Source of the DNA: Bacilli bacterium
Lineage (GTDB): Bacteria > Bacillota_I > Bacilli_A > RF39 > UBA660
Direction: 5' to 3'
DNA: 64,000 nucleotides
NCBI GenBank assembly: GCA_022795155.1
Contig: JAAWGF010000003.1
Coordinates: 13,775-77,774 of the forward strand
Position 1 is the first letter of the stretch, and each line of letters starts with the position of its first letter. A program made the translations under genes and the position numbers. Positions 13,874 to 63,336 of the stretch are shown piece by piece. A model generated the notes under the pieces. That model had not been told where the DNA came from. It did not search any database and worked only from the letters and a program-made list of their open reading frames with translations.

Positions 13874-13885
13874 AATTTACCTCCA

Positions 13886-14785
13886 CTATATTTTTAAATG
13901 CTTTTTAACAGCACGCCAGCTACCAAACATACCAACAATCATACCAATTGCTACTAAAGCAATTGCGACAAAATAAATAAAAGGTTCTGGCTTTATTAAT
14001 TGAATTATTTGTGTAAATAGCTTGCCACCAAATTTATTATATATAGCAACATAGCCATAAATAGTTATGATAACTGGTAAAATTGAACCAATAATCCCTA
14101 AAACTAAACCCTCTAAGATAAAAGGAATTTTTATATTTATATTAGATGCGCCAACTAATCGCATAATTTCGATTTCTCTACGACGCGAGAAAATAGTAAT
14201 TTTTATTGTATTAGATATTAAGAAAGCTGTAACTAAAATTAGAGCAACAACAACTATTAAACTAACATTTTTAATAGAATCAAAAACCGATACTAATTGT
14301 TCAACCATACCCTCTCCATACTTAACAACATCGACATGTTCAATATCTTTTATTTGATTAGCAATATCGCCAATTTTATCAATGTCAATAACCTTAACTT
14401 GGAAAGTAGCTTGAAGAGGATTTTCGTCTTCAGTCCATTCTGACATAATTGATCCAAAAATATCAGATGAATCCATCATTTCTTCAGTTATATCCGATTT
14501 AGAACGATATATATAGTTTTCAATATTATCAAGTTTTTTTATTTCTTCTTCAACCTTTTTTGTTTCCTCTTCAGTTATATCAACATCAAGGAAAGCAACA
14601 ATTGTAACATCCTTCTCCACTAAAGTAGCGAAGTTATTTACATTATATGTTAAAATAATCGCAACTGCTACAACAATTAAAGTAATGGCTATACATGAAA
14701 TAGATGCTAAAGAGAGAGAAAAGTTTCTAAATACACTCTTAAACGAGTCACGTATATTTCTGCTTAAAATTCTAAATGCCTTCAT
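13886..14785 (-). CDS. ftsX: Cell division ABC transporter permease FtsX
   Basis: 299 aa; four TM helices with a large extracellular loop; REIEIMRLVGAS motif; overlaps ftsE. Confidence 0.9.
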   Translation of the reverse strand: MKAFRILSRNIRDSFKSVFRNFSLSLASISCIAITLIVVAVAIILTYNVNNFATLVEKDVTIVAFLDVDITEEETKKVEEEIKKLDNIENYIYRSKSDITEEMMDSSDIFGSIMSEWTEDENPLQATFQVKVIDIDKIGDIANQIKDIEHVDVVKYGEGMVEQLVSVFDSIKNVSLIVVVALILVTAFLISNTIKITIFSRRREIEIMRLVGASNINIKIPFILEGLVLGIIGSILPVIITIYGYVAIYNKFGGKLFTQIIQLIKPEPFIYFVAIALVAIGMIVGMFGSWRAVKKHLKI

Positions 14786-15467
14786 GTGTATAAGTTCCTT
14801 TCTCGTAATCTTTCAAAATTCTTCCTGCATCTAATAAAATAACTCTCTTTTTCATTATTGATACAATATTAGTATCATGCGTAACCATAATTATTGTTGT
14901 ACCTAATTTATTAATTTCCTCAAGAACTTTCATAATTTCCATGCTCGTTGTTTCATCAAGATTTCCAGTTGGTTCATCACAAATTAATAATTTTGGTCCA
15001 TTAACAATAGCTCTAGCTATAGCTACTCTTTGTTGCTCTCCACCTGACAATTCAGTTGGATAATGCTTAGCTTTGTTTTTTAATCCAACTAAATCTAGAA
15101 CCTTTAAAACTTTTTCATGTATTTCCCCTTTTGGAAGCCCAAAAACTTCTAAAGCAAAGGCTACATTTTCATAAACAGTTAATTTTGAAAGTAACTTAAA
15201 GTCTTGAAAAACAACTCCTAATTTTCTTCTAAGTTTATATACTTTACCATTACGCAATTTAGCAACATCTAATCCACCAACAATAATTTTTCCACTAGTC
15301 GGTTTTTCTTCACGATATAGCATTTTAATTAAGGTTGATTTTCCACAACCTGTTGAACCAATGATGAAAACAAAATCACCCTTTTCAATTGTTAAATCTA
15401 AATCATAAATGGCTGTAACACCATTTTTATATTGCTTATTAACGCCTTTCATTCTTATTAGATTCAT
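14772..15467 (-). CDS. ftsE: Cell division ATP-binding protein FtsE
   Basis: Walker A GSTGCGKST, ABC signature LSGGEQQR, Walker B LLICDEPT. Confidence 0.95.
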   Translation of the reverse strand: MNLIRMKGVNKQYKNGVTAIYDLDLTIEKGDFVFIIGSTGCGKSTLIKMLYREEKPTSGKIIVGGLDVAKLRNGKVYKLRRKLGVVFQDFKLLSKLTVYENVAFALEVFGLPKGEIHEKVLKVLDLVGLKNKAKHYPTELSGGEQQRVAIARAIVNGPKLLICDEPTGNLDETTSMEIMKVLEEINKLGTTIIMVTHDTNIVSIMKKRVILLDAGRILKDYEKGTYTHEGI

Positions 15468-15484
15468 ACAACACCTCTATTCTT

Positions 15485-16360
15485 CTAAATTCCACCAGAC
15501 ACTTCATAAGCATCTGTGACAATGAAAAATGCCTCTTTATCAATTTGGTAAATGCCTTCTTTTACCATAAAATATTCCTTGGTTGGAATAATACACATAA
15601 TTATCTTTTGATTATTACCTGTATAACCACCTCGACCGTCTAATACTGTAATCCCATGCTTTAAAGTATTAGTAATATATCTTTTAACCTCTGTTTCATG
15701 TTCTGTAATAATATAAAAAGCTTTTGATTGAGAAATACCTAGTATAACTTTATCAGTCATGATACTTATAATATAAAGTGAAATAAGTGAATACATCAAC
15801 TTTGTCCAACCAAAAACAAATACACTACTAGCAATAATTAGACCATCTGTAAAAAACATTGATGTACCTAATGACATTTTAAAATATTTGGAAACAATTT
15901 GATTTAAAATATCAGTTCCACCAGTTGTAAATCCAGACTTAAAAATTAGTCCTAAACCAAAACCAGCAATAACAGCTCCAAAGATAACAATAATAATAGG
16001 ATCAGCATCGCTTAAATTTACGTATCTAGGTATCCATTCTGTTAAACTAACAAAAACAGGATATAATAAAGAACCAATAATCGAATTTTTAGTTTTTTCA
16101 ATACCTAATAATAGGAAACTTAAAATTAATAATAAAATTGAACCAATTAAAATTACAACTGATGGGCTCCAATTAAAAATTTGTTTAAACATAACACCCA
16201 ACCCGCCAACGCCATATACAACTGAACTTGGTATCATAAATAAATTATACGAAAGGGCAGTAATAATCATTCCTAAAATAAACTGAGTATAGCGTTTTAA
16301 ACGACCACGTTCATATATTTTTTTTAATATATTCTCTTCATTCTTTCTTTTAAAAAACAT
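15485..16360 (-). CDS. YitT-family membrane protein (DUF161 + DUF2179)
   Basis: 291 aa; TM core with GGTDIL-like motif and a C-terminal soluble DUF2179-like domain. Confidence 0.7.
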   Translation of the reverse strand: MFFKRKNEENILKKIYERGRLKRYTQFILGMIITALSYNLFMIPSSVVYGVGGLGVMFKQIFNWSPSVVILIGSILLLILSFLLLGIEKTKNSIIGSLLYPVFVSLTEWIPRYVNLSDADPIIIVIFGAVIAGFGLGLIFKSGFTTGGTDILNQIVSKYFKMSLGTSMFFTDGLIIASSVFVFGWTKLMYSLISLYIISIMTDKVILGISQSKAFYIITEHETEVKRYITNTLKHGITVLDGRGGYTGNNQKIIMCIIPTKEYFMVKEGIYQIDKEAFFIVTDAYEVSGGI

Positions 16361-17546: not shown

Positions 17547-19124
17547 TTAATCAACCCACTTAACTGTTTGTTTTTCTAAATTGTAATATTCTAAATACCA
17601 TGGTTCAACATAAGAAAATTCCTCTGGCATATGAAAAGCATATTGAGAATATTTTAATTTTTTTAAATAAATATCAATTACAAAAGTTCGATCAGTATTA
17701 TTGATAATATCTAAATTATAATCGAAAATCTTCGAATTTTCATAATAATAATAAATACATTTTGAAAAATTGAAAATATTAAATAAAATTAGTATTCCAA
17801 TTAAACTATATTTTAAATAAGACATCTGGTTATTACAAAATTTATTAATGATAATCAAGGCAATAAACATAGTAAGTCCTAATATCCAGTGTACACATAA
17901 ACAAAATATTAATAAAATAAACATTTTTAATTTATTATCACCATTATAATAACTATAATATATATATATTAAAAAAACAACAAGTAATGGAAAAAAGAAC
18001 CTATATGCAGTATATTCAATTAAAACAATTGATGTTAAATTGGCAATAATTCCACCTAAAAGTAAATATCCCAATTCTTTATTATGTGTTTTAACGCCAA
18101 GACAAGCATAAATATTAATAAATAGATAGATAAAAAACATTATATACATTATTAAAGATAAATGATTAAAATCAATAAAATGATAAATAGACATATTTAT
18201 AAATATAATGGAATTTATGATAATTAGATATATACTAGCAATTTTATTAATTTTGTTTTTCGTTTGTAAAAGATAATATGCCAAAATAAATGAAACAATA
18301 AACAGAATAGGAGTAAAACTAGAAGAAAATAAGTAACCAAAATAGTCTGGTAGTTTTATAATAAATTTTTCGATAATATTGGCTTCAAAAAAGAACGTCT
18401 CTTGCTTTGATAAACGATTAAGATTTCCAGGGATAAAGTAGCTACTAGCAAGCATTATTAAGGAAAAAGCAAAGAAAATTAACATTTTTTTATTAATATC
18501 CTTTTTTAAAACGTTATTAATGTTAATCATAAATAAAAATACGACAATTAATACAGTTGTGCTTTCCATCGTAAAATTAATAATAGTGAAAAATAATAAA
18601 CTTAGAATAAATCGCAAGATGGAGTAATGTTTATTATTAATATAATAATCTAAAATAAAGTATATAATTAGCAACATTGGTATATAAGCCCATAAATATA
18701 AAATAGTTCCATCGGCCCAATATAAAAGTTCATTAAGCATACTTATATTTAAACCTAATATAGTTAGTGTAATAAAAAAAGTTATTTGTAAAGTGTTATA
18801 TTGTTTTTTAATATTAATTATTTTGGCAACATAAAAGCAAAATAAAAATAAAAATAGAGGATTTAAAATTCTAAAAAATTGAATTCCAAATAAATAGAGA
18901 CCACTAGTAACAACTGCGTGTCCAATTAAACGTCCTGACCAGTTTTTAAAATAAAATATATAAAGATACTCTAACAGATTATTACTTCTTCTTAAAAGAG
19001 CAACAATATTGTAATCATCAGCATACATCTGAACATTTTGCATTTGAATAAAAAATAATAAATAAACAATTATTAATAAAATTGGATATTTATATTTTTT
19101 AACGAAATCGATTGTTTTTTTCAA
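17547..19124 (-). CDS. Hypothetical large polytopic membrane protein (possibly a GT-C-like glycosyltransferase or membrane-assembly protein)
   Basis: 525 aa with more than 10 predicted TM helices; no clear motif. Confidence 0.4.
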   Translation of the reverse strand: MKKTIDFVKKYKYPILLIIVYLLFFIQMQNVQMYADDYNIVALLRRSNNLLEYLYIFYFKNWSGRLIGHAVVTSGLYLFGIQFFRILNPLFLFLFCFYVAKIINIKKQYNTLQITFFITLTILGLNISMLNELLYWADGTILYLWAYIPMLLIIYFILDYYINNKHYSILRFILSLLFFTIINFTMESTTVLIVVFLFMININNVLKKDINKKMLIFFAFSLIMLASSYFIPGNLNRLSKQETFFFEANIIEKFIIKLPDYFGYLFSSSFTPILFIVSFILAYYLLQTKNKINKIASIYLIIINSIIFINMSIYHFIDFNHLSLIMYIMFFIYLFINIYACLGVKTHNKELGYLLLGGIIANLTSIVLIEYTAYRFFFPLLVVFLIYIYYSYYNGDNKLKMFILLIFCLCVHWILGLTMFIALIIINKFCNNQMSYLKYSLIGILILFNIFNFSKCIYYYYENSKIFDYNLDIINNTDRTFVIDIYLKKLKYSQYAFHMPEEFSYVEPWYLEYYNLEKQTVKWVD

Positions 19125-19409: not shown

Positions 19410-21101
19410 CTAATACTCCTTTTGAAAAGATGGGGCAATATATTTATATTTTACCAAACTTGAACCAGAATTCCAAGTCATATAACCACCTTTTAAGTCA
19501 GCATCATATAAACCTTGAATTTGATCAGATATTTTGGATGAATCATAAACAATATATGGGCTTTTAATTGTATCATAAGCTTGTACCCACGTTCTAACAA
19601 TTGCTGGAGTTGGTATTTCTTTTTGACGGTTTGCTGCATAGGTTCCCCAAGTATACATAAGTTTATAAGGAACTGTCCAAACAACTTCAGAAATACCGAA
19701 ATCATGAGCATTAAAGTGATCTGGATATGGCATCGCACTAATGACATCAACAACATTGGATATGCTTGGCCAATATTGACCATAAGCAGCTACATAAGTA
19801 TAAGCTGATTCCCCAAAAACATCTGCAGATACATAAGCACCAACAGAGTGAATTTCGTCACAAGCATACATTAAAAAGCGTTGAATAGCTTGAGCTTTTT
19901 CTTCACCATAATCATTTCGCATATTCATTGTTCCATTTTCTTCTAACTTATAAGTACGATCTGGAAAACGTACATAATCAAATTGAATTTCATTAAAACC
20001 CATTTCGGTTACAGCTTCTTTAGCTAATTTGACATTAAATTCCCAAACTTTACGTTGATATGCACTTGGCCAATAAGAACCGTTATGTGAAAATAAGGCC
20101 CCATTGCCACTATTAACAATCGCATATTCAGGATGATCTTGGGCAAAATATTGATCTTTAAAAACAGTGATTCGCCCAATTACATAGAAACCATTATCTT
20201 TTAATTTTTTTATAATTGCTTGATAATTTCCAAAAGAATTAATCGCATGACTATAATTAGTCGGAGATAGCTCCTCCATAACTTTTGATGCATAAGAAGG
20301 AGAGCCGCTATCTTTTATATCCACTACAAAAGCATTTATATTGCTTTGTTTGGCCAAGGCGATATACTCATCAACATTCCCTAAAACGCCACCATTTAAA
20401 TATAGACTTCTAACCTCGCTAGGCATAATATTATTATCGAACACAGGTTTTTGATAAGGGAAATAATCCAAATTACCACCTGATCCACCACCATATATAT
20501 CAGTCCTTTTTAAATGAATTTGATAATTACCATCTTGATCATAATTTTGCTTAGCTTCATCTAATGTATTAACAGTATATTTTTGATAGATATAACCTTC
20601 TATATCATTATATTTTATTTTATATTTTGATACATTACCATCACTTAAAATTTTATCAAATCCTATAATTTCTACTTTTTCCCCTTTTTTAACGATTCCT
20701 AAAAGATCAACATTTTCACTATCTTTATAAATAGAAGCCGGAGTTCGAACAAAACGTTCAGTTTCTAAAACAGTATTTTGTAGTTCATCAACTAAATCAT
20801 TTTTTAAAATTAAATATTCCTTTTCATCATAACTAATTTTGATATAAGTATTATTATCTTCTTCATTATTTTCATTAGTCAAATCTTTTTCAAAAACTTT
20901 AACCTTTGTTCCTCTAGCAATTTTTTCCGTCTCATTATATTCTAAATCAAATAATTGAACAGATAATTCACTACTAGCAATATACATATCCTTTTCAACT
21001 ATTTTCTTAGGAATTACTTTTTTAAAAAATATATTTTTCATAATAAAAAATAAGCTTACTACGACTAAAATTGTTACAATAAATATTATTACTTTTTTCA
21101 T
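19410..21101 (-). CDS. Membrane-anchored putative glycoside hydrolase (YngK/DUF4015-type TIM barrel) with N-terminal SH3-like repeats
   Basis: 563 aa; N-terminal TM; FNEIQFDYVRFPD motif typical of GHL/DUF4015 putative glycosidases. Confidence 0.45.
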   Translation of the reverse strand: MKKVIIFIVTILVVVSLFFIMKNIFFKKVIPKKIVEKDMYIASSELSVQLFDLEYNETEKIARGTKVKVFEKDLTNENNEEDNNTYIKISYDEKEYLILKNDLVDELQNTVLETERFVRTPASIYKDSENVDLLGIVKKGEKVEIIGFDKILSDGNVSKYKIKYNDIEGYIYQKYTVNTLDEAKQNYDQDGNYQIHLKRTDIYGGGSGGNLDYFPYQKPVFDNNIMPSEVRSLYLNGGVLGNVDEYIALAKQSNINAFVVDIKDSGSPSYASKVMEELSPTNYSHAINSFGNYQAIIKKLKDNGFYVIGRITVFKDQYFAQDHPEYAIVNSGNGALFSHNGSYWPSAYQRKVWEFNVKLAKEAVTEMGFNEIQFDYVRFPDRTYKLEENGTMNMRNDYGEEKAQAIQRFLMYACDEIHSVGAYVSADVFGESAYTYVAAYGQYWPSISNVVDVISAMPYPDHFNAHDFGISEVVWTVPYKLMYTWGTYAANRQKEIPTPAIVRTWVQAYDTIKSPYIVYDSSKISDQIQGLYDADLKGGYMTWNSGSSLVKYKYIAPSFQKEY

Positions 21102-48941: not shown

Positions 48942-50990
48942 TTAATTATTCGCTTCCTCTTTATTGTTTCGCATTTCTAGTGTCGCTTCGTTAATCGCAT
49001 CATCGATAGTTTTAATAGCATCATTAATCATACTATAACCTAAAGCTACACCAAAGCCATGAGCTAATTCTTTAAATTCTTTATTTAGTTTTCTTATATA
49101 AGAAATGATTTGCTTTTCTTCATAACCAACTAAATATATTAAGAATTCATTACCATTAGTTCTAATAATCTCAGAATTAGAGATTTGATTTTTAATCAAG
49201 ATATTTGCTGCTTCTTTAATTAAATTGTCCCCCTCATTATGACCATAATTGTCATTGATGTAAGCAACATTATTTAAATCAGCTATAACAATAGTTTGTG
49301 GATATACTTCACTATTATCCCATTTTTCAATATTATCATTTAAATAATTTCTGTTTTTTAAAGATGTTAACATGTCTATATAACGCAATTTATCTTCTTT
49401 ACTTAAATTATTAGAAGCTTTTTTATTTTTTGATAAATTTTTAATAAGAAGCAATGCTAAAACTAATAAGACAATAATTCCGCCAGTTGTTATTAATATG
49501 CGATAATTGAAATCACTTGTAACTTCTGTAGAAATAGAATTGTATTTACCATTAATTAGCTTTTTATCATTCATAAATGATAGATAATAATTAAGTAAAT
49601 TATAAAATATTTCATTATCGGAAATATCCCTAATAATATAATTATAATCATCATTAAGATTAAATATATATTTTAAATCACTATCTAAAAAATAGGTATT
49701 AAAATAATATTTATATGTAAGATAGTCAACAATAATTAAATCTGAAGAATCGATATTATTCATAATTTGATCAATATTTTTATGACCATTAACATCAAAC
49801 CCCTGACTATCTAAATAAGCAGCTATCTTAGTATCACTTATAACATTGATATCATGGTTTAATAAAGAATTAATTGAATTAATAACTAGGTCATTATCTT
49901 TATTTGATACAACAACAAATACTTCATCATAATTTGACGTTGTCGTAAATACATCCAATTCATAATCTTTATTAGCAACATTATTAAACATAAAGTCTAT
50001 CTTGTTTTCATTAAATGCATTAATTAAATCGCTATATGAATTAAAACGCTCAAAAGAAACTTCTGTGTTTGAAAATTTCATAAAGTCATTTATTATCTGG
50101 GTATTTATCCCATTCTCATCCATATCAAATGGAGCATTATTTACATATCCATAAGTATAACGTTTACTACGAAATTGAACTTTTTGTTTTTCGTCTATAT
50201 CATTAGCCGAAAAATATATATCAAGCAAATAATCATTAAAAGAATTATCAAAATTTTCTGTTGCCCATTTATTATAATATTTAATTAAAATATCATTTAA
50301 TCGATCATTATCACCTAATTTTAATACAACTTTTTTTGAAAATTCGGTAATATTATAACTAATATTATAATCTTTATAAGTTAAAATTTTATCCAAATAA
50401 ATAGTTTTAGGTAAAATAATGGCATCAACAAGAGGAACAATATTATTTTTAGGATCATTATTAATTGCCTCAAACAAACCATCAATATCTTCACTAGTCT
50501 TAAAAGTTGCATTAGCACCTTTTAAATAATAATCAATTTTTGAGACTTCCGAACTTAAAGTTCCAATAACCAAGTTATCAATATCTTTTAAATTTTCGTA
50601 TCTAACATTTTTATTAGTAAGAATAACATAGTTATCCTCATAAATTAAAATTTCGTCCTCTTCAATAGAATCAACAATATCAAAGCCATAATCAGATGTT
50701 GAATCAGCATCTAATTTAGTTGATATACGATTAAATTTTAACCCAGTGACCTCTTCCATATTATCTAAAAAGTCCAAAAAGATTCCCTTTCCTTCATAAC
50801 TAAACAATGGAACATCTGTAACAACTGAAAAATCAAAGCGCTGGTTTTTGTTACTCTCAATCCATTGTTTTTCAATGATATTTAAAGTTGTTGTTTGATC
50901 TTCTTTAGTTAAAAGGACATAAACTGATATTCCTGATATAATAACAACTATACTAGCAATAATGCCTATTAATAATTTATTTTTTTTCAT
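48942..50990 (-). CDS. Membrane sensor protein with large extracytoplasmic domain and degenerate C-terminal GGDEF domain
   Basis: 682 aa; TM1 near the N-terminus, roughly 470-aa ectodomain, TM2. The C-terminal domain aligns to diguanylate cyclases, but the signature reads RTNGNEFLIY (NGNEF instead of GGDEF/GGEEF). Confidence 0.65.
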   Translation of the reverse strand: MKKNKLLIGIIASIVVIISGISVYVLLTKEDQTTTLNIIEKQWIESNKNQRFDFSVVTDVPLFSYEGKGIFLDFLDNMEEVTGLKFNRISTKLDADSTSDYGFDIVDSIEEDEILIYEDNYVILTNKNVRYENLKDIDNLVIGTLSSEVSKIDYYLKGANATFKTSEDIDGLFEAINNDPKNNIVPLVDAIILPKTIYLDKILTYKDYNISYNITEFSKKVVLKLGDNDRLNDILIKYYNKWATENFDNSFNDYLLDIYFSANDIDEKQKVQFRSKRYTYGYVNNAPFDMDENGINTQIINDFMKFSNTEVSFERFNSYSDLINAFNENKIDFMFNNVANKDYELDVFTTTSNYDEVFVVVSNKDNDLVINSINSLLNHDINVISDTKIAAYLDSQGFDVNGHKNIDQIMNNIDSSDLIIVDYLTYKYYFNTYFLDSDLKYIFNLNDDYNYIIRDISDNEIFYNLLNYYLSFMNDKKLINGKYNSISTEVTSDFNYRILITTGGIIVLLVLALLLIKNLSKNKKASNNLSKEDKLRYIDMLTSLKNRNYLNDNIEKWDNSEVYPQTIVIADLNNVAYINDNYGHNEGDNLIKEAANILIKNQISNSEIIRTNGNEFLIYLVGYEEKQIISYIRKLNKEFKELAHGFGVALGYSMINDAIKTIDDAINEATLEMRNNKEEANN

Positions 50991-54766: not shown

Positions 54767-55093
54767 GTGAAAAAAGATAGAAATTGTGGAATGAATCCAT
54801 ACCCTGTTTATCAACCATACCAACAAGTAGGTCCTATGATGAATCCTGGTATGATGGCTCCTAGTATGATGCCACCTGTTATGGCACCAGGAAATATCCA
54901 AATGCCACCACAATATTCAATAAGCCAAGATAGTGTTAGTTCTAATACTATTGAACAGCAAATGGCTCAAATGCAACGACAAATCAATAATTTAGATGCC
55001 CGTGTTTCTAAATTAGAGAGTTCTATAAATACGATTGGTAATTCTTCATTTAATTCCAATCAATATTCAAGTGGCAACTACCACATTGTTTAA
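54767..55093 (+). CDS. P/M/Q-rich small protein (spore-coat-like composition), GTG start
   Basis: 108 aa; RBS AAAGGAGAG then GTG; Pro/Met/Gln-rich N half (PYPVYQPYQQVGPMMNPGMMAPSMMPPVMAPG) and coiled C half. Own terminator follows. Confidence 0.4.
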   Translation: MKKDRNCGMNPYPVYQPYQQVGPMMNPGMMAPSMMPPVMAPGNIQMPPQYSISQDSVSSNTIEQQMAQMQRQINNLDARVSKLESSINTIGNSSFNSNQYSSGNYHIV

Positions 55094-55118
55094 AAAACGT
55101 CTAAGACGTTTTTATTTT
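55094..55118 (+). terminator. Rho-independent terminator
   Basis: AAAACGTC-TAA-GACGTTTT followed by TATTTT. Confidence 0.6.
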
Positions 55119-55934: not shown

Positions 55935-57299
55935 TTAATTATTACATATAAATTCTTTAGCTGTTTCTAAATCGCTAAAGTGAATTTTTTCATGATTTAT
56001 AATTTGATAATCCTCATGACCTTTTCCTAAAATAAGTAAAATATCATTTTGGTTAAGCATTTTGATACCTTCTATAATAGCCTCTTTTCGATTATATTTA
56101 ATTGTAAAATTATTTTTTATTAGTGGCTTAGTAATGTCATCCATGATAGCCTTTTCATCCTCTGTTCGTGGATTATCATTAGTAAATATAACAAAATCAG
56201 ATTTTTCAGTAGCAATAGTTCCCATTATTGGGCGTTTCGTTTTATCACGATCACCACCACAACCAATAATGGTAATAATACGCCCTTTTTTATATTCAGT
56301 GACACTATTTATAATGTTTTCGACAGCATCTGGTGTATGTGCATAATCAATGACAATAACAGCTTCCTTATATCTTAGCGTTTCAAAGCGACCATTTGGG
56401 GCTGTTAAGTTCTGTGATAGTCCAATAATTTGTTCAATACTATAACCCATTTTGTGCAAAATAATAAGTAAATTCATATAGTTATAGACATTATACTTAC
56501 CTGGTATATTTAATTTAACATCATATTCTTTTCTATCATAAATAAAAGTAAACTCACTTGAATCAATATTTAAATTATAAGACGTAATTCTATAATCAGA
56601 ATTAATATTAGTACCATAAATAACATTATTATTTTGTTCTAGGCAAAAATCTTTATAATATGGATCATCGCCATTTATAACAGCAATTTTATCATTTCTT
56701 AAATTTTCAAATAATTTAATTTTGGCTTTTTCATAATTTTCTAAACTCTCATGAAAATCTAAATGGTCTTGAGTCAAATTAGTGAATGATGCATAATCGA
56801 ATCCTAGTCCTAAAACACGGTCTAAAGCTAAAGCATGGCTACTTACTTCCATAGCTATTACTTCAACCTTATTTTGAATGCAATAGTCAAACATTTCATA
56901 TAAATCAATTAAGTCAGGGGTTGTATTATCCAAATCTTTTACTTTTCCATCAACATAAAAACCAATTGTACCTATATAAGCTGTTTTAACACCTAATTTA
57001 TTTAAAGCTTGATAAATAAGATAACAACTAGTTGTTTTACCATTAGTCCCTGTTATGCCGATAAATTTTATTTTCGATAAATCTTCTTTATATTTTTCTT
57101 TTAAGTAATTAGCTAGATAAACACGAGTATTTTCGACAATTTTAGTCTTAACACTATAGTCACCTTTTTCAGCAATTATTTCTGTAGCTCCATTTAAAAT
57201 AGCTTTATCAATAAAATCGTGCCCATCAATATTTAAACCTTTAATAGCTACAAAAGTGTCACCACTTTTTACTTTACGTGAATCAACTTGAATACTCAT
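55935..57299 (-). CDS. murE: UDP-N-acetylmuramoyl-L-alanyl-D-glutamate--2,6-diaminopimelate (or L-Lys) ligase MurE
   Basis: Start more likely the internal MSIQVDSRKVKSGD (57299). P-loop GITGTNGKTT; C-terminal DNPR motif (FTNDNPRTEDE), usually associated with meso-DAP-adding MurE. Confidence 0.9.
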   Translation of the reverse strand: MSIQVDSRKVKSGDTFVAIKGLNIDGHDFIDKAILNGATEIIAEKGDYSVKTKIVENTRVYLANYLKEKYKEDLSKIKFIGITGTNGKTTSCYLIYQALNKLGVKTAYIGTIGFYVDGKVKDLDNTTPDLIDLYEMFDYCIQNKVEVIAMEVSSHALALDRVLGLGFDYASFTNLTQDHLDFHESLENYEKAKIKLFENLRNDKIAVINGDDPYYKDFCLEQNNNVIYGTNINSDYRITSYNLNIDSSEFTFIYDRKEYDVKLNIPGKYNVYNYMNLLIILHKMGYSIEQIIGLSQNLTAPNGRFETLRYKEAVIVIDYAHTPDAVENIINSVTEYKKGRIITIIGCGGDRDKTKRPIMGTIATEKSDFVIFTNDNPRTEDEKAIMDDITKPLIKNNFTIKYNRKEAIIEGIKMLNQNDILLILGKGHEDYQIINHEKIHFSDLETAKEFICNN

Positions 57300-57300
57300 A

Positions 57301-58902
57301 TTATCCTCCCTCATTAAATAAATCTGGCAAGTCATTTTCTAATAAGACGAATGTCTCCTCACCTTTTAATTTCTCGATTAACACAAATGCTTCTTTAACA
57401 TCATTTAATATATATATATGCTTTTTGTCATATTTTTTTAGTATTAATCCATCATAAATTGGTTTAGTTTGTTGTTCACCAACTAAAATTACATCATCAC
57501 AAACATCGGCAATATATTCACCAAATTTATTATTTAACTCATACTGACTACTTCCAAGTTCAATCATTCCAGGCGTCACAATGATCTTTTTACCTGGCAT
57601 TAAATTTAAAACTTCTAAAGCCATTTTTGAACCAGTTGGATTAGAATTAAAAGCATCATCAATTAAATACATATCTTTATATTTTTTTAATTCTAAACGA
57701 TGTTCGATTGGCATTAAAGATTTAACTGCTGCTTGCATTTTAGGAATTGGGATATTTAATTCATAGCCTAATGCTAAAGCATCTAAAATATTATAAATGT
57801 TATGGCGCCCCAATAATTTTGTTTCAAAATCATATAATTTATCATCATTTTTAAATTTAACTTTAAAAGTTGTTCCTGTATGTGACAACTTAAGATTTGA
57901 GGCCATAACATCAGCTTTATTTTCAATACCAATCCAAATAATTTTACAAGTATTTTTAATTTTATAATTAACTTGTTTACTATCATCACGATTTAAAATC
58001 GCTACTCCATCACTAGGTAAAGTTTCAATAAGTTCAAATTTACCTTTAACAATATTTTCTTCACTTTTAAATGTTTCCAAATGAGCTACTCCAATTGTTG
58101 TTATAATCCCATATTTAGGTTTAGCTAAATTACATAAAATTTTTATATCTTTAAGTTTACAAGCTCCCATTTCGGCAATAAAAACATTATCAAATTTATC
58201 AAGTCCATTATTAATAGATTTCATAAGTCCATATGGGGTATTAAAACTTTTAGGCGTTGGGTAAGAATTATATTCACTACTTAGAATTGTATTTAAAATA
58301 TTTTTACTACTAGTTTTTCCATAGCTACCTGTAATACCTACAATTTCTAAATTAGGCATATTTTTTAATTTTTTCTTAGCTTTATTTAAATAGTAAAGAT
58401 AAACAAACTTTTCAGCTGGTATATTTATAATATTGATTATATAGGTTATTATAAATGATAGATAGCCAAATAAAGCAATAATTAAATAATAGTATAATAT
58501 ATACTCATCATTATAATTTCTATAGATAAAATATATTAAAGTTAAAAACAGAATAAATAAAGTTACAAATAATCGTTTAACGCGACTAGTTATAACAAAT
58601 GGTTTTTTTTGTTGTTCTTTTTTTATTAATTTTAATTCTATATAAAAGCATAGCGAAAATAATAAAAAGGCTACATATATATAATAATCTTTTAATATTA
58701 AAATTATTAATAATAATGGAAAAAGAGATAAATCATAAGTAATTAAAGTTTTAAATGGATTTTTAAATACCCATTTTATATATCGGTTGCTTACATTATA
58801 GGAGTTTTGTTGCAACATATAAATGGCTTTACGATATTTTAGAATCATATACAAAATAAATGGTATTAACGAAATTAATAAATTATTCATACTACTCACC
58901 AA
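57301..58902 (-). CDS. murF: UDP-MurNAc-tripeptide--D-Ala-D-Ala ligase MurF with unusual N-terminal polytopic membrane extension
   Basis: 533 aa. Residues after about 165 are a normal MurF (P-loop GITGSYGKTSS, central and C-terminal Mur ligase domains). The first roughly 150 aa are 4 to 5 hydrophobic helices in place of the usual MurF domain 1. Confidence 0.8.
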   Translation of the reverse strand: MVSSMNNLLISLIPFILYMILKYRKAIYMLQQNSYNVSNRYIKWVFKNPFKTLITYDLSLFPLLLIILILKDYYIYVAFLLFSLCFYIELKLIKKEQQKKPFVITSRVKRLFVTLFILFLTLIYFIYRNYNDEYILYYYLIIALFGYLSFIITYIINIINIPAEKFVYLYYLNKAKKKLKNMPNLEIVGITGSYGKTSSKNILNTILSSEYNSYPTPKSFNTPYGLMKSINNGLDKFDNVFIAEMGACKLKDIKILCNLAKPKYGIITTIGVAHLETFKSEENIVKGKFELIETLPSDGVAILNRDDSKQVNYKIKNTCKIIWIGIENKADVMASNLKLSHTGTTFKVKFKNDDKLYDFETKLLGRHNIYNILDALALGYELNIPIPKMQAAVKSLMPIEHRLELKKYKDMYLIDDAFNSNPTGSKMALEVLNLMPGKKIIVTPGMIELGSSQYELNNKFGEYIADVCDDVILVGEQQTKPIYDGLILKKYDKKHIYILNDVKEAFVLIEKLKGEETFVLLENDLPDLFNEGG

Positions 58903-58966
58903 TATAATTATACAATAAATTTAAAAAAATTAATAATAAAAAAGAGATTTTTATTCTCTTTTCCAT

Positions 58967-61444
58967 TTATCTACGCTTTCCTAAATCATTATTTTCTTCA
59001 AAAGATATATTGCTATAATTTTCTGGATGACTTAATTTATCTTTTTCAATATAAGATTTACTAAAATAGCCTTTTGTTTCAGGAATATAATAATTATTCA
59101 TGTAATTATTAGCAATATTATCATAAAATCCATAATCATTAGAATCATATACAAAATCATATGTCTTATTATTATACATATTATATAAATCAAATAAAGT
59201 AATATTTAAGTTTCTTTTCCTATGAGGGATATCCTCTTCATATAGTATTGAATCTTCAAAACAATTCATAGCATTTTCTATGTCATCATAACCAAATAAA
59301 GATAATTTTTCTCTTATTAATTTATCACTGCCTGTAAAATAGTAATATTTTAATGATTCACTGCCAACTAACTCCATTAAAATTTTTGTTGCCTTTTCTT
59401 CCATTAACGAAAGTTCATCTTTTTTAGACAATTCTATTCCATAATATTCTTCTAATATAATATTAATACATGCGTTATATAAAATGTAATTACTGTAATT
59501 TTCTGATAACAGTTTTACAAATTGTTCTACTTTCTCTTTTTTATAAACATCAGCATATAGAAGGTTATTTTTAGAAGCATATTGTTTACAATTATTTTCA
59601 CTTATTACTATTTCACAGTTTTCTAAATCAATAGCGCTAATTCTATAAGGAAATTTATCATTTGAATCCGATCCTATTATACATCTATCATCATTAGTTA
59701 TTCGCAAATTTTTTAAACATTTTATAATATTATAATGATTATAATATAATTCAACATTACCATTTTCACTTATTCTATCATTTAAATACATCCTTGTATA
59801 ATAAATATAATCGTTGATTAATTCTTCATTAAAAAGGATATCTTTTTCCTCATTACTTAAATTTTGATTGTTATAAAATGCTTGTTTTAAAGTGAAAAAG
59901 TCCAAATCATTAAGTAAATCTTCTGTATCTACTCTAACTGAGATTTGATTATAAGCAGGGTGATAAGTATTTGTTGCTAACTTATAATTTAATGCATCGT
60001 ACAAATCATCTTCATTTTTTGGCTTATCACAATTATTAAAATAATATTTACTAAAAGTATAATCTAAAGCCTCTAAATACTTATTAATAGCTGAGTTGGC
60101 TCTCATTGAACAATTGTATTTATTGTAGTAAACGAATGAATAAATTGTTTTCATATTACTTATATTTTGCTGCCACTGTTCTTCAGTAATAGTTTTGCCT
60201 ATGGAACCTTCTGTTCTCTTATATATTTCTAGTAATTTGTTTACATCTTCTATAGGTAGATACTTTTCTAATTCTTCTTTAATTGGCTCAATACTACCTG
60301 TAAAGTTATACCTTATTACTGGTTCTTTACCAATGATTTCCATTAAAATAGCAGTATATTTAGGTTTGGTATTATCAATAAATGAATATTTATTCATTAA
60401 ACTAACTGTTTTTGATGACTCTCCAATCATTTCATAATCTCCAATATTTTTATTATATTCATATTCTGGAGATGTTACAACACTTTCTGTTTTATGAAAT
60501 TCTTTGCCCATAATGGTAGCACAACCTTCAAATAAAAAAGAATATTCGTTAGGTGGTTGAAAAAGATGCGAAAACTCATGTAACATAACTTCTTTATATT
60601 CTTCATAAAAATTTTCTCCATTAGACCTTTTAATTAAATCAAGATTGAGGCTTAATGTATAATCATTTGAATTCCATGTGCCTAATAGTTTTTCTCCCAT
60701 ATCTTTTTCTACAATCGTAAAATTTGGCAATATAATATTATATAGCTTAGCAGCATATTCTTTATTTTCATTTACATATTGACTTGCAAATTCAATAATA
60801 CCACTATTTAATAAAATTCCCTTATTACTATCATTTATATTTTTATTATTTTTAATAAGATCTGAAATTATCTCAGTTGTTAATGTTGGTGTATTATTCA
60901 TCAGCTCTGCTAAATAAATAGATTGCTCACTATCTATTTCTATAGAATCAGATATTGCTATCGATTCAATAGGTGGATTATTATCTATCAACTGATCAAG
61001 TTTCGAAATAAAATTACATTCAGCAAATATTAAAAGAGAAAGACTTGTTACTCTCAAAAGTCTAACGGTATTATCATCTCGATCTAATAAATTATCAGTA
61101 TATTTAATGTTCCTATTATCAGCAATAATGACATCTTCAAAATTATTTATAAATAAATTAAAATTTTCTTTCCCATTTAAAAAGTAATGTTTTAAATTAG
61201 TATCTAAATCTAAAATAACATCATAACTATGATTATCTTTTTCATAATCACCAATTTTTTTAGCATTATTTCCAATTTTTAATTTATTTAATTCTTTAAA
61301 TACATCTTCATTTAAAGGATAAAAATGATTATTTTCATATATATAACCATATATTTTTGGATGTTCAGTATTTATATTATCACTAAAAATATTATAAATT
61401 CTATTATTTGCTGTTAAGCGCATTAATTCCATATCATTCACCAT
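58967..61444 (-). CDS. Large (825 aa) hypothetical protein with HExxH zinc-metallopeptidase-like motif
   Basis: No signal peptide or TM; a single HEFSH motif (EVMLHEFSHLFQPP) roughly 300 aa from the N-terminus; N/Y/D-rich; no family recognised. Confidence 0.45.
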   Translation of the reverse strand: MVNDMELMRLTANNRIYNIFSDNINTEHPKIYGYIYENNHFYPLNEDVFKELNKLKIGNNAKKIGDYEKDNHSYDVILDLDTNLKHYFLNGKENFNLFINNFEDVIIADNRNIKYTDNLLDRDDNTVRLLRVTSLSLLIFAECNFISKLDQLIDNNPPIESIAISDSIEIDSEQSIYLAELMNNTPTLTTEIISDLIKNNKNINDSNKGILLNSGIIEFASQYVNENKEYAAKLYNIILPNFTIVEKDMGEKLLGTWNSNDYTLSLNLDLIKRSNGENFYEEYKEVMLHEFSHLFQPPNEYSFLFEGCATIMGKEFHKTESVVTSPEYEYNKNIGDYEMIGESSKTVSLMNKYSFIDNTKPKYTAILMEIIGKEPVIRYNFTGSIEPIKEELEKYLPIEDVNKLLEIYKRTEGSIGKTITEEQWQQNISNMKTIYSFVYYNKYNCSMRANSAINKYLEALDYTFSKYYFNNCDKPKNEDDLYDALNYKLATNTYHPAYNQISVRVDTEDLLNDLDFFTLKQAFYNNQNLSNEEKDILFNEELINDYIYYTRMYLNDRISENGNVELYYNHYNIIKCLKNLRITNDDRCIIGSDSNDKFPYRISAIDLENCEIVISENNCKQYASKNNLLYADVYKKEKVEQFVKLLSENYSNYILYNACINIILEEYYGIELSKKDELSLMEEKATKILMELVGSESLKYYYFTGSDKLIREKLSLFGYDDIENAMNCFEDSILYEEDIPHRKRNLNITLFDLYNMYNNKTYDFVYDSNDYGFYDNIANNYMNNYYIPETKGYFSKSYIEKDKLSHPENYSNISFEENNDLGKRR

Positions 61445-61515: not shown

Positions 61516-63336
61516 TTACGCTTCATTAAAATATCTATCATACCAAACTAAGAAAATATAGATTGTCCATACCTTTCGACTATTATCATATTTACTATTC
61601 TTATGGTCATCTAATAGTTTAACAATTTCGTTAGTATTAAAAAATTCACTAGCGTCTAAAAATCTTGTCTTAATTTTATTATAAATATCATCTTCTTTAA
61701 TCCAATTTCTAATTGGTACTGGAAAACCTAATTTCTTTTTATTAGAAACTTTATCATCTAATACTTCATTTGCAACTTTCCTAAAGCATTTTTTAGTTGT
61801 ATTTTTATCTACTTTATATTTAGTTGGTAAATGTCTTGCATAATCAATTACAATTCTGTCTAGATATGGTACTCTAACCTCTAAAGAATTAGCCATACTC
61901 ATTTTATCTGCTTTAAGCAAAATATCGCCAATTAACCAAAAATTAAAGTCTATATATTGCATTTTTATAACATCATCTTTTCCTTTAACTTTTTCATAAT
62001 ATGGTTTAGTTAAATGTTGATAACCATTTTTAATTGGTTTATAAGCTAATATTTTTTTTACTTCTTTATTATTGAATATAAAAGCATTTCCTACATATCT
62101 ATCTTCCAATTTTTGTCCACGCCTTATTAAAAAATTAATACCTCTTTTATGTTTAAATATAGAAGCACAACTTCCAATTAATTTTCTAATTGGATAAGGA
62201 ATTTTATAATACCAACTCCATGTATATGGCTCTGAATAAATATTATAACCACCAAAAATTTCATCGGCTCCTTCACCAGATAATGAAACCTTAACATTTT
62301 GACTAGCAATATTAGCAACAAAATATAAAGCAATACATGATGGATCAGCCAATGGTTCATCCATATAATACATAATATCAGAAATACTATCAAAGTACTC
62401 TTCCTTAGTTATAACTTTACTAATATTTTTTGTGTTAATCTTTCCTGATAAATCTTTAGCGTAATCTATTTCACTATAATTTTTATTTTCAAAACCTACT
62501 GTGAATGTTTTGTCCACATTGCTTAAAGTCGCAATTAAGGAAGAATCAACTCCGCTTGATAAAAATGAACCAACCTCCACATCACTTACTTTATGGGCTT
62601 TAATCGAATCATCTAAATGTTCTCTAATTCCCTTTTCCCATTCTTCGAGTGTTTTGCTATCATCAGCTTCTAATTCTAATTCATAATACTTGCTTATTTC
62701 CAATTTCTGATCTTTATATTTTAAATAATGCCCTGGTCTTAATTTATAAACATTTTTGAAAAACGTTTCTTCACCCACACTATATTGAAAAGTTAAATAA
62801 CTTTCTAGCATTTCTTTATTTAATTCTTTTTTAAAATTAGGATGCGCTAAAAAGCTTTTTATTTCTGATGAAAACAAAAATTCATCAGTTGTCAAATAGT
62901 AATAAAAGGGTTTAATTCCATAAAAATCTCGAGCTGCAAACACTTCTTTTAGATTAGTATCATAAATTACAAAGGCAAACATGCCACGTAGTTTCAATAA
63001 TATTTCTTCATTGTATTCTTCATATCCATGTAGAATAACTTCTGTATCAGCATTAGTTTTAAATGTATGACCTTTGGCAATCAGTTCCTCTTTAATTTCT
63101 TGATAGTTATAAATTTCACCATTAAAAACAATAACCTTGGTATTATCCTCATTATAAATGGGTTGTGAGCCAGTATCTAAATCAATAATACTAAGACGAC
63201 GAAATCCTAAAGCGACCTCAGAATCACAAAAATAGCCATCAGAATCTGGTCCACGATGTTTAATTAAGTCAGCCATATCTTTAACAATTTTTTTCTTATT
63301 TTTTTCTTTGTCGACAAAACCTACAAAACCACACAT
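61516..63336 (-). CDS. asnB: Asparagine synthetase B (glutamine-hydrolysing)
   Basis: 606 aa; N-terminal MCGF (Cys2 nucleophile), SGGVDSS PP-loop. Confidence 0.92.
   Translation of the reverse strand: MCGFVGFVDKEKNKKKIVKDMADLIKHRGPDSDGYFCDSEVALGFRRLSIIDLDTGSQPIYNEDNTKVIVFNGEIYNYQEIKEELIAKGHTFKTNADTEVILHGYEEYNEEILLKLRGMFAFVIYDTNLKEVFAARDFYGIKPFYYYLTTDEFLFSSEIKSFLAHPNFKKELNKEMLESYLTFQYSVGEETFFKNVYKLRPGHYLKYKDQKLEISKYYELELEADDSKTLEEWEKGIREHLDDSIKAHKVSDVEVGSFLSSGVDSSLIATLSNVDKTFTVGFENKNYSEIDYAKDLSGKINTKNISKVITKEEYFDSISDIMYYMDEPLADPSCIALYFVANIASQNVKVSLSGEGADEIFGGYNIYSEPYTWSWYYKIPYPIRKLIGSCASIFKHKRGINFLIRRGQKLEDRYVGNAFIFNNKEVKKILAYKPIKNGYQHLTKPYYEKVKGKDDVIKMQYIDFNFWLIGDILLKADKMSMANSLEVRVPYLDRIVIDYARHLPTKYKVDKNTTKKCFRKVANEVLDDKVSNKKKLGFPVPIRNWIKEDDIYNKIKTRFLDASEFFNTNEIVKLLDDHKNSKYDNSRKVWTIYIFLVWYDRYFNEA

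Follow-up and report, generated by a model that had tools for sequence, protein, structure and literature searches.

The question raised by this locus is whether a MurF-type ligase can carry a membrane domain in place of the N-terminal domain that, in the canonical Mur ligases, holds the UDP-MurNAc-peptide. MurF is essential, has long served as a target for antibiotics, and is taught to be a soluble enzyme of the cytoplasm. In the 64,000-nucleotide stretch of DNA analyzed here (the window), whose host belongs to an RF39-like lineage of gut Bacilli with ~25% GC, a sequence-only reading had described a MurF in which domain 1 is replaced by a hydrophobic segment of four to five helices. We refer to this gene as TM-murF and to its product as TM-MurF; the features on which the analysis draws are as follows, with residues numbered in the 529-aa form.

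57301..58890 (-): TM-MurF coding sequence, 529 aa from ATG (Pfam and NCBIfam); database protein P0001, 529 aa, is 100% identical
58907..58914 (-): extended -10-like TGTATAAT, weak evidence, recognized by eye; the promoter scan needs a -35 and did not call it
58895..58900 (-): Shine-Dalgarno-like GGTGAG, 4 nt 5' of the ATG at 58890, read from the sequence
58363..58890 (-): N-terminal membrane domain, aa 1-176, in place of MurF domain 1 (no PF01225; AF2)
58840..58881 (-): predicted TM helix 1, aa 4-17 (hydropathy, AF2, topology)
58738..58839 (-): predicted cytoplasmic loop 1, aa 18-51, motif (H/Y)MLQQNSY...RYxKW, with an amphipathic helix at aa 30-43
58624..58737 (-): predicted TM helices 2 and 3, aa 52-89, a helical hairpin (hydropathy, AF2, topology)
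58582..58623 (-): predicted cytoplasmic loop 2, aa 90-103, motif KEQxKKPxVxTxR(VKRL)
58519..58581 (-): predicted TM helix 4, aa 104-124 (hydropathy, AF2)
58426..58503 (-): predicted TM helix 5, aa 130-155 (hydropathy, AF2)
58363..58425 (-): NxPxE motif (N156, P158, E160) and continuous helix from TM helix 5 to the core, aa 156-176
58309..58338 (-): P-loop GITGSYGKTS, aa 185-194
57769..58335 (-): Mur ligase central ATP-binding domain (PF08245, 1.8e-40), with E240, H270, K284, N300 and D302
57343..57702 (-): Mur ligase C-terminal domain (PF02875, 3.8e-10), with R398, DDAFNSNP, the MurF-type MxELG (M442, E444-G446) and the family-specific end LLENDLPD
55935..57299 (-): murE, 454 aa from the ATG at 57299, with a GGGAGG ribosome-binding site at 57305-57310 inside the end of TM-murF
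58967..61444 (-): 825-aa protein of unknown family with a HEFSH motif, between asnB and TM-murF
61516..63336 (-): asnB-type glutamine-dependent asparagine synthase/amidotransferase (Asn_synthase, GATase_7), two genes upstream, given as context only

An arrangement of this kind could arise from an error of annotation or assembly, either because a small membrane gene has been run into a truncated murF or because the true start lies just before the ligase core. An internal Met about six residues ahead of the core (KNMPNLEIVGITG) and one database homologue that consists of the core only (P0075, 350 aa) would fit such an error. P0075, however, owes its core-only form to a 10-N scaffold gap (locus L097), with an N-domain ORF directly upstream, and at a further locus (L098) the contig starts 130 nt before homology begins. 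The internal Met is not kept in homologues, for example P0012 and P0046, and TM-murF shows no stop, frameshift or Shine-Dalgarno sequence ahead of it. Across at least 583 species-level genomes that encode TM-MurF the frame is uninterrupted, and in the AF2 model a continuous helix (aa 145-176, pLDDT >90) joins TM helix 5 to the core. We therefore regard an artefact or split gene as scarcely credible. The architecture is far beyond chance: no separate small membrane gene was found, and a misassembly or foreign insertion is at odds with an extension that proves to be lineage-wide, more than 100 full-length homologues of 56-88% identity keeping the membrane region.

The mechanical ORF (57301..58902 on the minus strand, 533 aa) opens with a TTG at 58902; the ATG at 58890-58888 is the likelier start; GGTGAG precedes it by 4 nt and P0001 is identical at this length. 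Upstream of the cassette described below, an identical TGnTATAAT box lies in the related loci L001, L002, L086 and L089, and together with the box in the window this provides weak evidence for a sigma-A-type extended -10. A promoter and terminator scan returned 44 sites compared to 41.6 in shuffled sequence, which is no excess, so that the statement about the promoter is drawn from inspection by eye.

Downstream of the membrane region, the protein is recognizably a MurF. In the 533-aa form, Mur_ligase_M is matched at aa 190-378, covering profile positions 1-199 of 200, and Mur_ligase_C at aa 401-520 (41.1 bits vs a cut-off of 28.4). PF01225 is absent from TM-MurF in the same Pfam search that finds it in the MurE of the window, which has the expected N-terminus, as the sequence-only reading had held. 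The five best NCBIfam matches are all MurF models, the first of them at 227 bits, and the next model that is not a MurF is MurE at 93 bits. On the MurF family model TIGR01143, TM-MurF obtains 226.9 bits against a cut-off of 288.6 and aligns with profile positions 66-403 only, compared to 464 bits for B. thuringiensis MurF and 476 bits for E. coli MurF, which both cover positions 1-418. The best matches in both the PDB sequence search and Foldseek are MurF structures (3zl8, 1gg4, 4qf5 and 4cvk, over ~370 columns), and the PDB MurF chains align with TM-MurF only from their residues 73-100 on. Likewise, in an alignment with the E. coli and B. thuringiensis enzymes, the canonical N-domains align to nothing, and the core is 29-35% identical to theirs over ~340 aa, these two being 33% identical to each other. 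All three proteins have in common E240, H270, K284 (the position of the carbamoylated lysine), N300, D302, R398, D412, N415 and M442-x-E444-L445-G446. The canonical C-terminal KGSR motif is replaced in TM-MurF by an invariant ENDLPD, which makes an altered specificity possible.

With these motifs, the core has retained what MurF needs to bind ATP, Mg2+ and the dipeptide. The view that everything from the P-loop on is ordinary MurF thus stands for the catalytic motifs, MxELG included, but not for the family score, which is about half that of the controls, or for the C-terminal end; the P-loop itself lies slightly later than the residue of about 175 first given for it.

With regard to the N-terminal region, a Kyte-Doolittle scan gave five hydrophobic segments, and AF2 modeled helices at aa 2-28, 30-43, 52-64, 67-91, 102-124, 128-143 and 145-176 (block pLDDT 88-96). 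When modeled alone, the membrane domain reached a pLDDT of 95.8 and a pTM of 0.88. The positive-inside rule is obeyed, with K+R counts of 7.7 (the mean for loop 1), 4.9 and 5.8 on one side compared to 0.1-0.4 on the other, and the domain is predicted to have five TM helices with its N-terminus out and its C-terminus in. The replacement of domain 1 by a membrane segment of four to five helices is hence borne out by the missing PF01225, the partial TIGR01143 and PDB alignments, and the AF2 model.

Ten residues are invariant among the 36-117 sequences compared, in which N-domain identity to the window falls as low as 27%: Q27, N29, Y31 and W40 in loop 1, K95, T101, R103 and R106 in the region of the loop 2 motif, and P158 and E160. 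N156 is also counted among the invariant polar residues of the cytoplasmic face, and in the predicted topology all of the conserved residues of the domain lie at the cytoplasmic membrane interface. Since these positions are kept at so low an identity, the membrane domain is, as far as conservation can tell, functional and not a passive anchor. The hydrophobic segment had been viewed as a tether; it is more than that, being conserved as a domain whose cytoplasmic face bears polar residues that do not vary.

The membrane domain was found in 347 representative clusters. Among the best 150 of these, all 18 full-length members (≥500 aa) carry it at the head of a protein of 519-559 aa, the shorter members look like fragments, and no full-length protein has the domain apart from the TM-MurF architecture. 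Pfam searches with the domain returned scattered noise (at most 3 of 36 members matching any one family), a PDB sequence search returned no match at E≤10, and Foldseek against the PDB returned none below E=4, the best having E=4.2 and a TM-score of 0.17. A match of the N-domain to the NCBIfam "AFWIR motif membrane protein" was dismissed as noise (E=0.007, 16.6 bits vs a cut-off of 60).

The architecture had been thought unusual. It turns out to be widespread among uncultured Bacilli of the gut and to occur in cultured Bacillales as well, in most cases within a cassette whose order in most relatives, the cultured carriers included, is alpha/beta-hydrolase, TM-murF, and a long Ddl. Cultured carriers include Evansella cellulosilytica (CP002394), Salicibibacter cibarius (CP054705), Aquibacillus kalidii and Gorillibacterium, and a Pseudalkalibacillus sp. 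(CP143541) is also a carrier. A ddl gene lies directly 3' of TM-murF in ~65 of 80 related loci and at another seven, cultured Bacillales among them, and the cassette is spread from RF39-like MAGs, where it is kept on 0.6-1.1 Mb contigs from small genomes (Ga0621872_00037, Ga0334897_000005 and ERZ25039477 contig_19967), to Bacillales with genomes of 3.6-5.5 Mb. In the lineage of the window, TM-murF is instead coupled to murE, its stop lying 1 nt from the murE start, and stands downstream of asnB; the adjacency of TM-murF and murE recurs in L005, L012, L049 and L069, and AsnB precedes TM-murF in L005 as well. Whether the 825-aa HEFSH protein belongs to the TM-murF feature is uncertain.

Other neighbors of the cassette vary. 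Tandem or duplicate cassettes occur in L034 and in L039 and L042; in L091 and L092 it adjoins a class B PBP and an M15 (VanX/DdpX-like) peptidase whose scores fall well short of the cut-offs for VanX and DdpX; and mraY/ftsW lie within 10 kb of it in L002. In L058 and L080, murE directly neighbors mraY and no murF intervenes, and in L087 the cassette immediately precedes cshA, at the place where B. thuringiensis has a canonical ddl-murF pair. No glutaminase was seen next to TM-murF at the loci inspected, nor VanH, VanT or VanRS near the cassette. We also considered a plasmid-borne resistance cassette and an anti-phage defense module, and rejected both: in tblastn searches of 72,556 plasmid records, no copy covering ≥80% of TM-MurF was present and the Ddl query retrieved only Van/Ddl relatives below 40% identity, and PADLOC gave no match for TM-MurF, the hydrolase, Ddl or the 825-aa neighbor.

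The cassette Ddl forms a distinct long subfamily with its own insertion and C-terminal tail. It scores 324 and 351 bits on NF002528 (vs 262) and 285 and 289 bits on TIGR01205 (vs 245.65), E15 and S150 are invariant, and the omega-loop pair K215-Y216 (DdlB numbering) is found in all cassette copies, VanA being the exception. As this pair is retained, VanA-like D-Ala-D-Lac chemistry is disfavored, and the enzyme is predicted to make the dipeptide. The hydrolase, which is conserved and translationally coupled, is closest, weakly, to the lipase family EstV (137-139 bits vs a cut-off of 300).

Our preferred reading, in which we have moderate confidence, is that TM-MurF is a membrane-integral enzyme of the MurF branch that adds D-Ala-D-Ala in peptidoglycan synthesis, and that it is likely the working MurF of the cell. 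ATP would activate the C-terminal carboxylate of the MurNAc-tripeptide precursor, to which D-Ala-D-Ala would then be added, and the basic and aromatic cytoplasmic face of the membrane domain would take the acceptor-holding role of domain 1. With the acceptor held in this way, the pentapeptide precursor would be made at the inner leaflet, beside MraY, and a coupling of precursor synthesis to MraY/MurG is a possibility. In the organism of the window, TM-murF, coupled to murE near asnB, would most likely be the working MurF rather than a spare copy, and in most other lineages TM-MurF would act with the products of its two flanking genes, the dedicated Ddl and a serine hydrolase of the cytosol.

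The evidence for such a housekeeping role is indirect throughout. The divergence of TM-MurF keeps pace with that of MurE, their respective identities to the copies in the window, paired across genomes, being 58/55, 58.5/59, 55/51, 50/49, 65/57 and 51/49%; to this can be added the murE-mraY pairs lacking a murF, the position upstream of cshA, the retention in small genomes, and the -10 boxes. Against the working-MurF reading stand the score below the curated cut-off (227 vs 288.6 bits), ENDLPD in the place of KGSR, the coupled hydrolase, for which a plain MurF reaction has no use, and the duplicate cassettes and the M15 and PBP neighbors, which hint at a specialized module.

In the rival that deserves the most weight, even if we hold it to be rather doubtful, TM-MurF, Ddl and hydrolase form an accessory module serving a special precursor pool while a canonical MurF encoded elsewhere does the bulk of the work; such a module might, for example, re-add the dipeptide to trimmed stems, or give the stem a different terminus when the cell is stressed or sporulating. 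The duplicate cassettes and the M15 and PBP neighbors speak for this rival, as do the conservation of the cassette from RF39-like MAGs to large Bacillales genomes, a Ddl subfamily that is distinct and under equivalog cut-offs, and a MurF with a reduced family score and an altered C-terminal motif. It is quite possible that the large Bacillales genomes have a canonical MurF elsewhere; none was found in the window or in flanks of ~1.5 Mb, which is a weak argument since these are flanks and not whole genomes. The module is harder to reconcile with a Ddl predicted to make the ordinary dipeptide, with the lack of VanH, VanT and VanRS nearby, with a cassette that fills the canonical ddl-murF-cshA position in L087, and with a gene that has left the cassette and joined the murE operon in the lineage of the window, that is kept in very small genomes, and that evolves at the rate of MurE.

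Two further readings change the acceptor. The chemistry could be unaltered and the substrate a lipid, with the membrane domain binding undecaprenyl-pyrophosphate-linked lipid I/II tripeptide and D-Ala-D-Ala being added after MraY, in which case the dipeptide would come from the linked Ddl on the spot and the product would be edited by the hydrolase. We consider this unlikely, despite the complete absence of the UDP-binding domain and the precedent of MurT, a Mur-ligase homologue without domain 1 that acts on lipid II and whose structures are among the fold matches. The invariant interface residues, rich in Arg, Lys, Thr, Asn and Gln (R103, R106, K95, T101, N156, E160), would fit a pyrophosphate-lipid headgroup, but could equally bind the diphosphate and uridine of UDP. 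Moreover, the MraY of relatives is a standard MraY (TIGR00445, 293 bits) with no sign of adaptation to a tripeptide, and the core is far nearer to MurF than to MurT (28.6 bits on the MurT model NF052464 vs a cut-off of 800, for the Evansella homologue only). If true, the step taken to be the last in the cytoplasm would change places with the first one at the membrane, or there would be a route for the repair of lipid-II stems. Quite improbable, in our view, is a membrane-bound carboxylate acceptor outside peptidoglycan, such as a lipid-linked uronic-acid polymer or a carboxyl lipid, with the hydrolase processing the product. With the lost domain goes the one link between a Mur ligase and the muramyl nucleotide, other relatives of the Mur ligases act on substrates outside peptidoglycan (PgsB/CapB, cyanophycin synthetase, FolC and CfbE, some of which gave weak NCBIfam matches), and the hydrolase is weakly lipase-like. 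Against this stand a core that is MurF-like throughout, including MxELG, informative neighbors that are all peptidoglycan genes (ddl, murE, asnB, M15 peptidase, PBP, mraY/ftsW), and NCBIfam results at E≤0.1 with no poly-gamma-glutamate synthase model and cyanophycin synthetase at only 41 bits.

A membrane-integral working MurF would bring to the membrane a step of peptidoglycan synthesis that textbooks assign to the cytoplasm, and bears on whether the Mur pathway is organized there and whether late stem-peptide chemistry takes place on lipid-linked intermediates. As TM-MurF falls below the curated MurF thresholds, pathway reconstructions may call MurF missing and wrongly infer that peptidoglycan synthesis is incomplete, in carriers that include abundant uncultured Bacilli of human and animal guts. 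A survey reports unexplained missing steps in RF39 (PMC10868615), MurF not being stated to be among them; KO entries for murF, murE or ddl are absent from the supplement of the RF39 paper, and a connection between these missing steps and TM-MurF is conjecture on our part. Full-text searches of the literature returned no description of a transmembrane MurF or of a hydrolase/TM-murF/ddl cassette. The cultured carriers make the TM-MurF hypothesis testable now.

Compared with canonical MurF (TIGR01143; 1GG4, 3ZL8, 4QF5, 4CVK), TM-MurF has the same central and C-terminal domains, the P-loop, the Mg2+ glutamate, the lysine at the carbamoylation position, HR, DDxYNxNP and MxELG, and a gene tied to ddl and murE. 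It differs in having a 176-aa five-helix domain instead of the UDP-MurNAc domain, in being predicted to be membrane-integral rather than soluble, and in showing half the family score and ENDLPD for KGSR. MurT/GatD resembles it in that MurT has lost domain 1 and has the membrane-bound substrate lipid II, with 9sqj and 6gs2 among the structural matches. MurT, however, is soluble, has a DUF1727-type C-domain and a glutaminase partner, and amidates D-Glu, whereas the neighbor here is Ddl; the MurT model is also absent from the NCBIfam matches of the TM-MurF in the window. PgsB/CapB is a membrane-active ATPase of the Mur-ligase superfamily with an N-terminal hydrophobic anchor, in which it is similar, but the anchor of PgsB is single and short, the enzyme works with PgsC and PgsA to polymerize glutamate, and no PgsB model was matched.

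Clusters of the vancomycin-resistance type combine a Van ligase with VanX and, in glycopeptide producers, with MurF2, and these share with the cassette a dedicated ligase of the Ddl family and a dedicated MurF-type enzyme, as well as the M15 peptidase in L091 and L092. The cassette differs from the Van-type clusters in a Ddl that keeps the omega-loop Tyr, unlike VanA, in having no VanH, VanT or VanRS, in an M15 protein below the VanX/DdpX cut-offs, and in not being found on plasmids. Finally, natural chimeras of Mur enzymes (MurE-MurF, MurC-Ddl, MurD-FtsW and MraY-MurG) demonstrate that Mur enzymes can be coupled to one another and, in MurD-FtsW and MraY-MurG, to integral membrane proteins (PMC10214165). 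The membrane part of TM-MurF is unlike FtsW/RodA, MraY or any Pfam entry, and while the chimeras are end-to-end fusions of complete enzymes, TM-MurF is the replacement of one domain by another.

TM-MurF, the window's MurF-type ligase with an N-terminal five-helix membrane domain, has a MurF-type catalytic core and has lost domain 1. Its open reading frame is listed as 57301..58902 (minus strand, 533 aa counted from a TTG); we adopt a 529-aa numbering, since an ATG at 58890 lies 4 nt 3' of GGTGAG and the database protein P0001, 100% identical to the window protein, is 529 aa long. In Pfam, Mur_ligase_M and Mur_ligase_C are present and PF01225, the N-terminal Mur_ligase domain, has no match, while PF01225 is detected in the MurE encoded directly downstream. 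The top NCBIfam model is TIGR01143 (MurF), at 226.9 bits and thus below its cut-off of 288.6 bits, with an alignment that begins at profile position 66; the controls, MurF from B. thuringiensis (464 bits) and from E. coli (476 bits), cover the whole profile. The sequence-only reading of a MurF with a membrane segment in place of its N-terminal domain is confirmed by this missing domain and late alignment start.

A PDB sequence search likewise returns MurF structures first (3zl8, 1gg4, 2am1, 4cvk and 4qdi), aligned only from their own residues 73-100 on, and Foldseek with the AlphaFold2 model ranks MurF first over ~370 columns. Core identity to the E. coli and B. thuringiensis enzymes is 29-35%, these two being 33% identical to each other. 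The P-loop (aa 185-194), E240, H270, K284 (the carbamoyl-lysine position), N300/D302, R398, DDAFNSNP and the MurF-type motif MxELG are all kept, and an invariant ENDLPD at the C-terminus replaces the canonical KGSR. The description of this core as ordinary MurF therefore holds for the catalytic motifs, but is overstated in view of the sub-threshold score and the altered C-terminus.

A hydropathy scan finds five hydrophobic segments in the N-terminal 176 residues, in line with the four to five helices first proposed, and the AlphaFold2 model (117-sequence alignment, mean pLDDT 90.8, pTM 0.81) places helices at residues 2-28, 30-43, 52-64, 67-91, 102-124, 128-143 and 145-176, the last of which passes unbroken into the ligase core. 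Modeled alone, the N-domain reaches pLDDT 95.8 and pTM 0.88. Averaged over 36 diverse members, Lys+Arg counts are 7.7 in loop 1 (aa 18-51), 4.9 in loop 2 (aa 90-103) and 5.8 in the helix after TM5, compared to 0.1-0.4 at the N-terminus and the other two turns. This distribution supports a predicted N-out, C-in topology, which is also the only orientation that fits an ATP-dependent catalytic domain.

In alignments with N-domain identity to the window down to 27%, the invariant or nearly invariant residues are Q27, N29 and Y31 within (H/Y)MLQQNSY; R36 and W40; K95, K96, T101, R103, R106 and T110 within KKPLVxTxRVKRLxxT; and N156, P158 and E160, all of them at the cytoplasmic membrane interface. 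Because these residues persist at such divergence, the N-domain is not a bland anchor; the notion of a membrane-tethered ligase was right about the membrane segment and understated its nature, this being a conserved domain rather than a tether. The N-domain has no Pfam family and no PDB sequence relative, and Foldseek against the PDB gives no match better than E=4. The N-domain is conserved, and the models fold it with confidence as five membrane helices with a predicted polar, basic cytoplasmic face.

The extension was also found in homologues from related taxa. A first homology search gave >100 full-length relatives (520-535 aa, 56-88% identity), and one genome per GTDB species, when scanned, gave at least 583 confirmed loci. 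The 80 retained all come from uncultured gut MAGs labeled 'Bacilli', 'Tenericutes', 'Erysipelotrichaceae' or 'Ca. Coprosoma', taken here to be the RF39 group. Searched exhaustively by phmmer against 1.84 billion representatives, the N-domain on its own gave 347 clusters; among the best 150 hits, all 18 full-length proteins have the TM-MurF architecture (519-559 aa), and the shorter matches seem to be fragments, beginning at residue 1-25. A profile search added one Clostridiaceae MAG and cultured Bacillales (Evansella, Alteribacillus, Geomicrobium, Salsuginibacillus, Pseudalkalibacillus, Salicibibacter, Salibacterium, Sinobaca, Aquibacillus, Alkalicoccus and Gorillibacterium). We reject an artefact, whether a separate small membrane gene or a misassembly, as the sole core-only homologue, P0075 (350 aa), stems from a scaffold gap, a run of 10 N (L097:3860-3900); in its second source, the first 130 nt of the contig (L098:1-130) are unrelated. 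The two breaks coincide near a locally repeated ILNIINIP-like stretch.

In the window, the gene order is asnB, a gene for an 825-aa HExxH protein, TM-murF and murE, which differs from the cassette frequent in relatives. The neighboring and other listed features are:

61516-63336, minus strand: asnB-type amidotransferase, adjoining TM-murF/murE here and also present in L005
58967-61444, minus strand: 825-aa protein with an HEFSH (HExxH) motif, between asnB and TM-murF
54767-55093, plus strand: small ORF of 108 aa, with a Pro/Met/Gln-rich N-terminus, MNPYPVYQPYQQVGPMMNPGMMAPSMMPPVMAPGN, and a coiled-coil-like tail
48942-50990, minus strand: 682-aa protein with a C-terminal GGDEF and a long N-terminus without an assigned domain
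17547-19124 and 19410-21101, both minus strand: DUF6056 membrane protein and DUF4015 putative glycosyl hydrolase

The 825-aa protein has no match in Pfam or PADLOC, and past its stop codon is a weak AT-rich hairpin with a T-run behind it (~58942-58960); the 108-aa ORF has no significant family match and a terminator-like hairpin on its 3' side (55093-55113). Elsewhere the window carries ordinary chromosomal genes (LeuRS, a class II tRNA synthetase, ComEC, Der, UvrC). The murE ribosome-binding site lies inside the end of TM-murF, with a stop-to-start gap of 1 nt, and this pairing recurs in L005, L012, L049 and L069. In some Bacillota, homologues of AsnB amidate the meso-diaminopimelate of peptidoglycan, so the asnB/TM-murF/murE group may be a stem-peptide gene cluster. 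We note that L058 (12448-15623, minus strand) and L080 carry a second MurE-type ligase (470 aa, above MurE cut-offs, sharing just 34% identity with the window MurE); its partner is a 588-aa GatA-like amidase, and both genes sit between TM-murF and a murE-mraY pair.

TM-murF is tightly linked to murE or to ddl. In ~65 of 80 RF39-like loci it lies in a fixed cassette of an alpha/beta-hydrolase (~245-260 aa), whose stop codon touches or overlaps the start of TM-murF, then TM-murF, and then Ddl (390-415 aa). The same cassette occurs in:

L084, Evansella cellulosilytica
L085, Salicibibacter cibarius
L086, Gorillibacterium
L087, a common Bacillaceae-like MAG
L089, a 1.12-Mb contig
L091, Pseudalkalibacillus
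L092, Aquibacillus

No membrane segment is seen in the hydrolase, whose GHSxGG, Asp and His triad is intact. The Ddl clears NCBI subfamily cut-offs and, unlike VanA, keeps DdlB E15, S150 and K215-Y216, so a dipeptide product is expected. DdlB, VanA and B. thuringiensis Ddl lack both its Gly/Lys-rich insertion, immediately C-terminal to the omega-loop KY (L001:11615-12799, L084:11574-12788 and others), and its basic C-terminal extension of ~40 aa (LALKRxRER...NL...GGKGxK). Downstream of the L087 cassette lies cshA, encoding a protein that shares 73% identity with its B. thuringiensis counterpart; as the order in B. thuringiensis is canonical ddl-murF-DEAD helicase, the cassette occupies the site of the usual housekeeping pair. 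An M15 peptidase (PF01427), a weak VanX/DdpX relative far under both cut-offs, lies 3' of the cassette in L092 (12942-13664) and in L091, where a class B PBP comes next (12976-15965 for this L091 stretch). In L086, a gene for Amj, the alternative lipid II flippase, lies 3.6 kb downstream. One short contig (L034:1-5299) holds two cassettes in tandem, and one MAG (assembly CAKOXL01) two separate TM-murF loci, L039 and L042; either paralogous cassettes or a mixture of strains may account for this.

Taking this together, we infer that TM-MurF would add D-Ala-D-Ala to a MurNAc-tripeptide precursor at the membrane, its membrane domain taking over the acceptor-holding that is the role of the N-terminal domain in Mur ligases (PMC10214165). 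On indirect grounds, TM-MurF is likely the working MurF of this organism: it diverges in step with MurE between genomes, murE and mraY are adjacent without murF in L058 and L080, the cassette adjoins cshA in L087, the gene is kept on 0.6-1.1 Mb contigs from small genomes, and its upstream signals resemble sigma-A promoters. Carrier genomes, above all the large Bacillales ones, may hold a canonical MurF elsewhere. It is possible, if on balance doubtful, that the cassette is an accessory three-gene module beside such an enzyme, as suggested by the hydrolase, which has no explained role, by a Ddl that forms a distinct subfamily, by the neighboring M15 and PBP genes, by the duplicated cassettes and by the sub-threshold TIGR01143 score. 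This overlaps with a lipid-linked acceptor (lipid I or II tripeptide), which we consider improbable: the analogy with MurT/GatD favors it and the interface residues would suit a pyrophosphate headgroup, but they would suit UDP equally well. An acceptor outside peptidoglycan is unlikely, as both the neighboring genes and the MurF-specific motifs speak against it. Tests of a defence-system reading and of a plasmid-borne one gave no support to either. The simplest reading would be a known reaction, relocalised.

The sequences are already deposited as MurF or 'Mur ligase family protein', and the architecture, membrane domain and cassette appear not to have been described before: full-text searches of the literature did not turn up the architecture, and a survey of Mur chimeras (MurE-MurF, MurC-Ddl, MurC-MurB, MurG-MurC, MurD-FtsW, MraY-MurG) does not include this form (PMC10214165). 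A genomic survey reports unexplained missing steps in the RF39 peptidoglycan pathway (PMC10868615), and that MurF is one of them would be conjecture. An integral-membrane MurF this widespread would surprise a peptidoglycan specialist, and the cultured carriers make the key experiments feasible. The closest known system is canonical MurF, and the sequence suggests a MurF-like mode of working, although TM-MurF falls outside the curated family by the NCBI threshold and lacks one defining domain. Conceptual parallels are MurT, which lacks domain 1 and acts on a lipid substrate, PgsB, a Mur-type ligase anchored in the membrane, and the MurD-FtsW and MraY-MurG chimeras.
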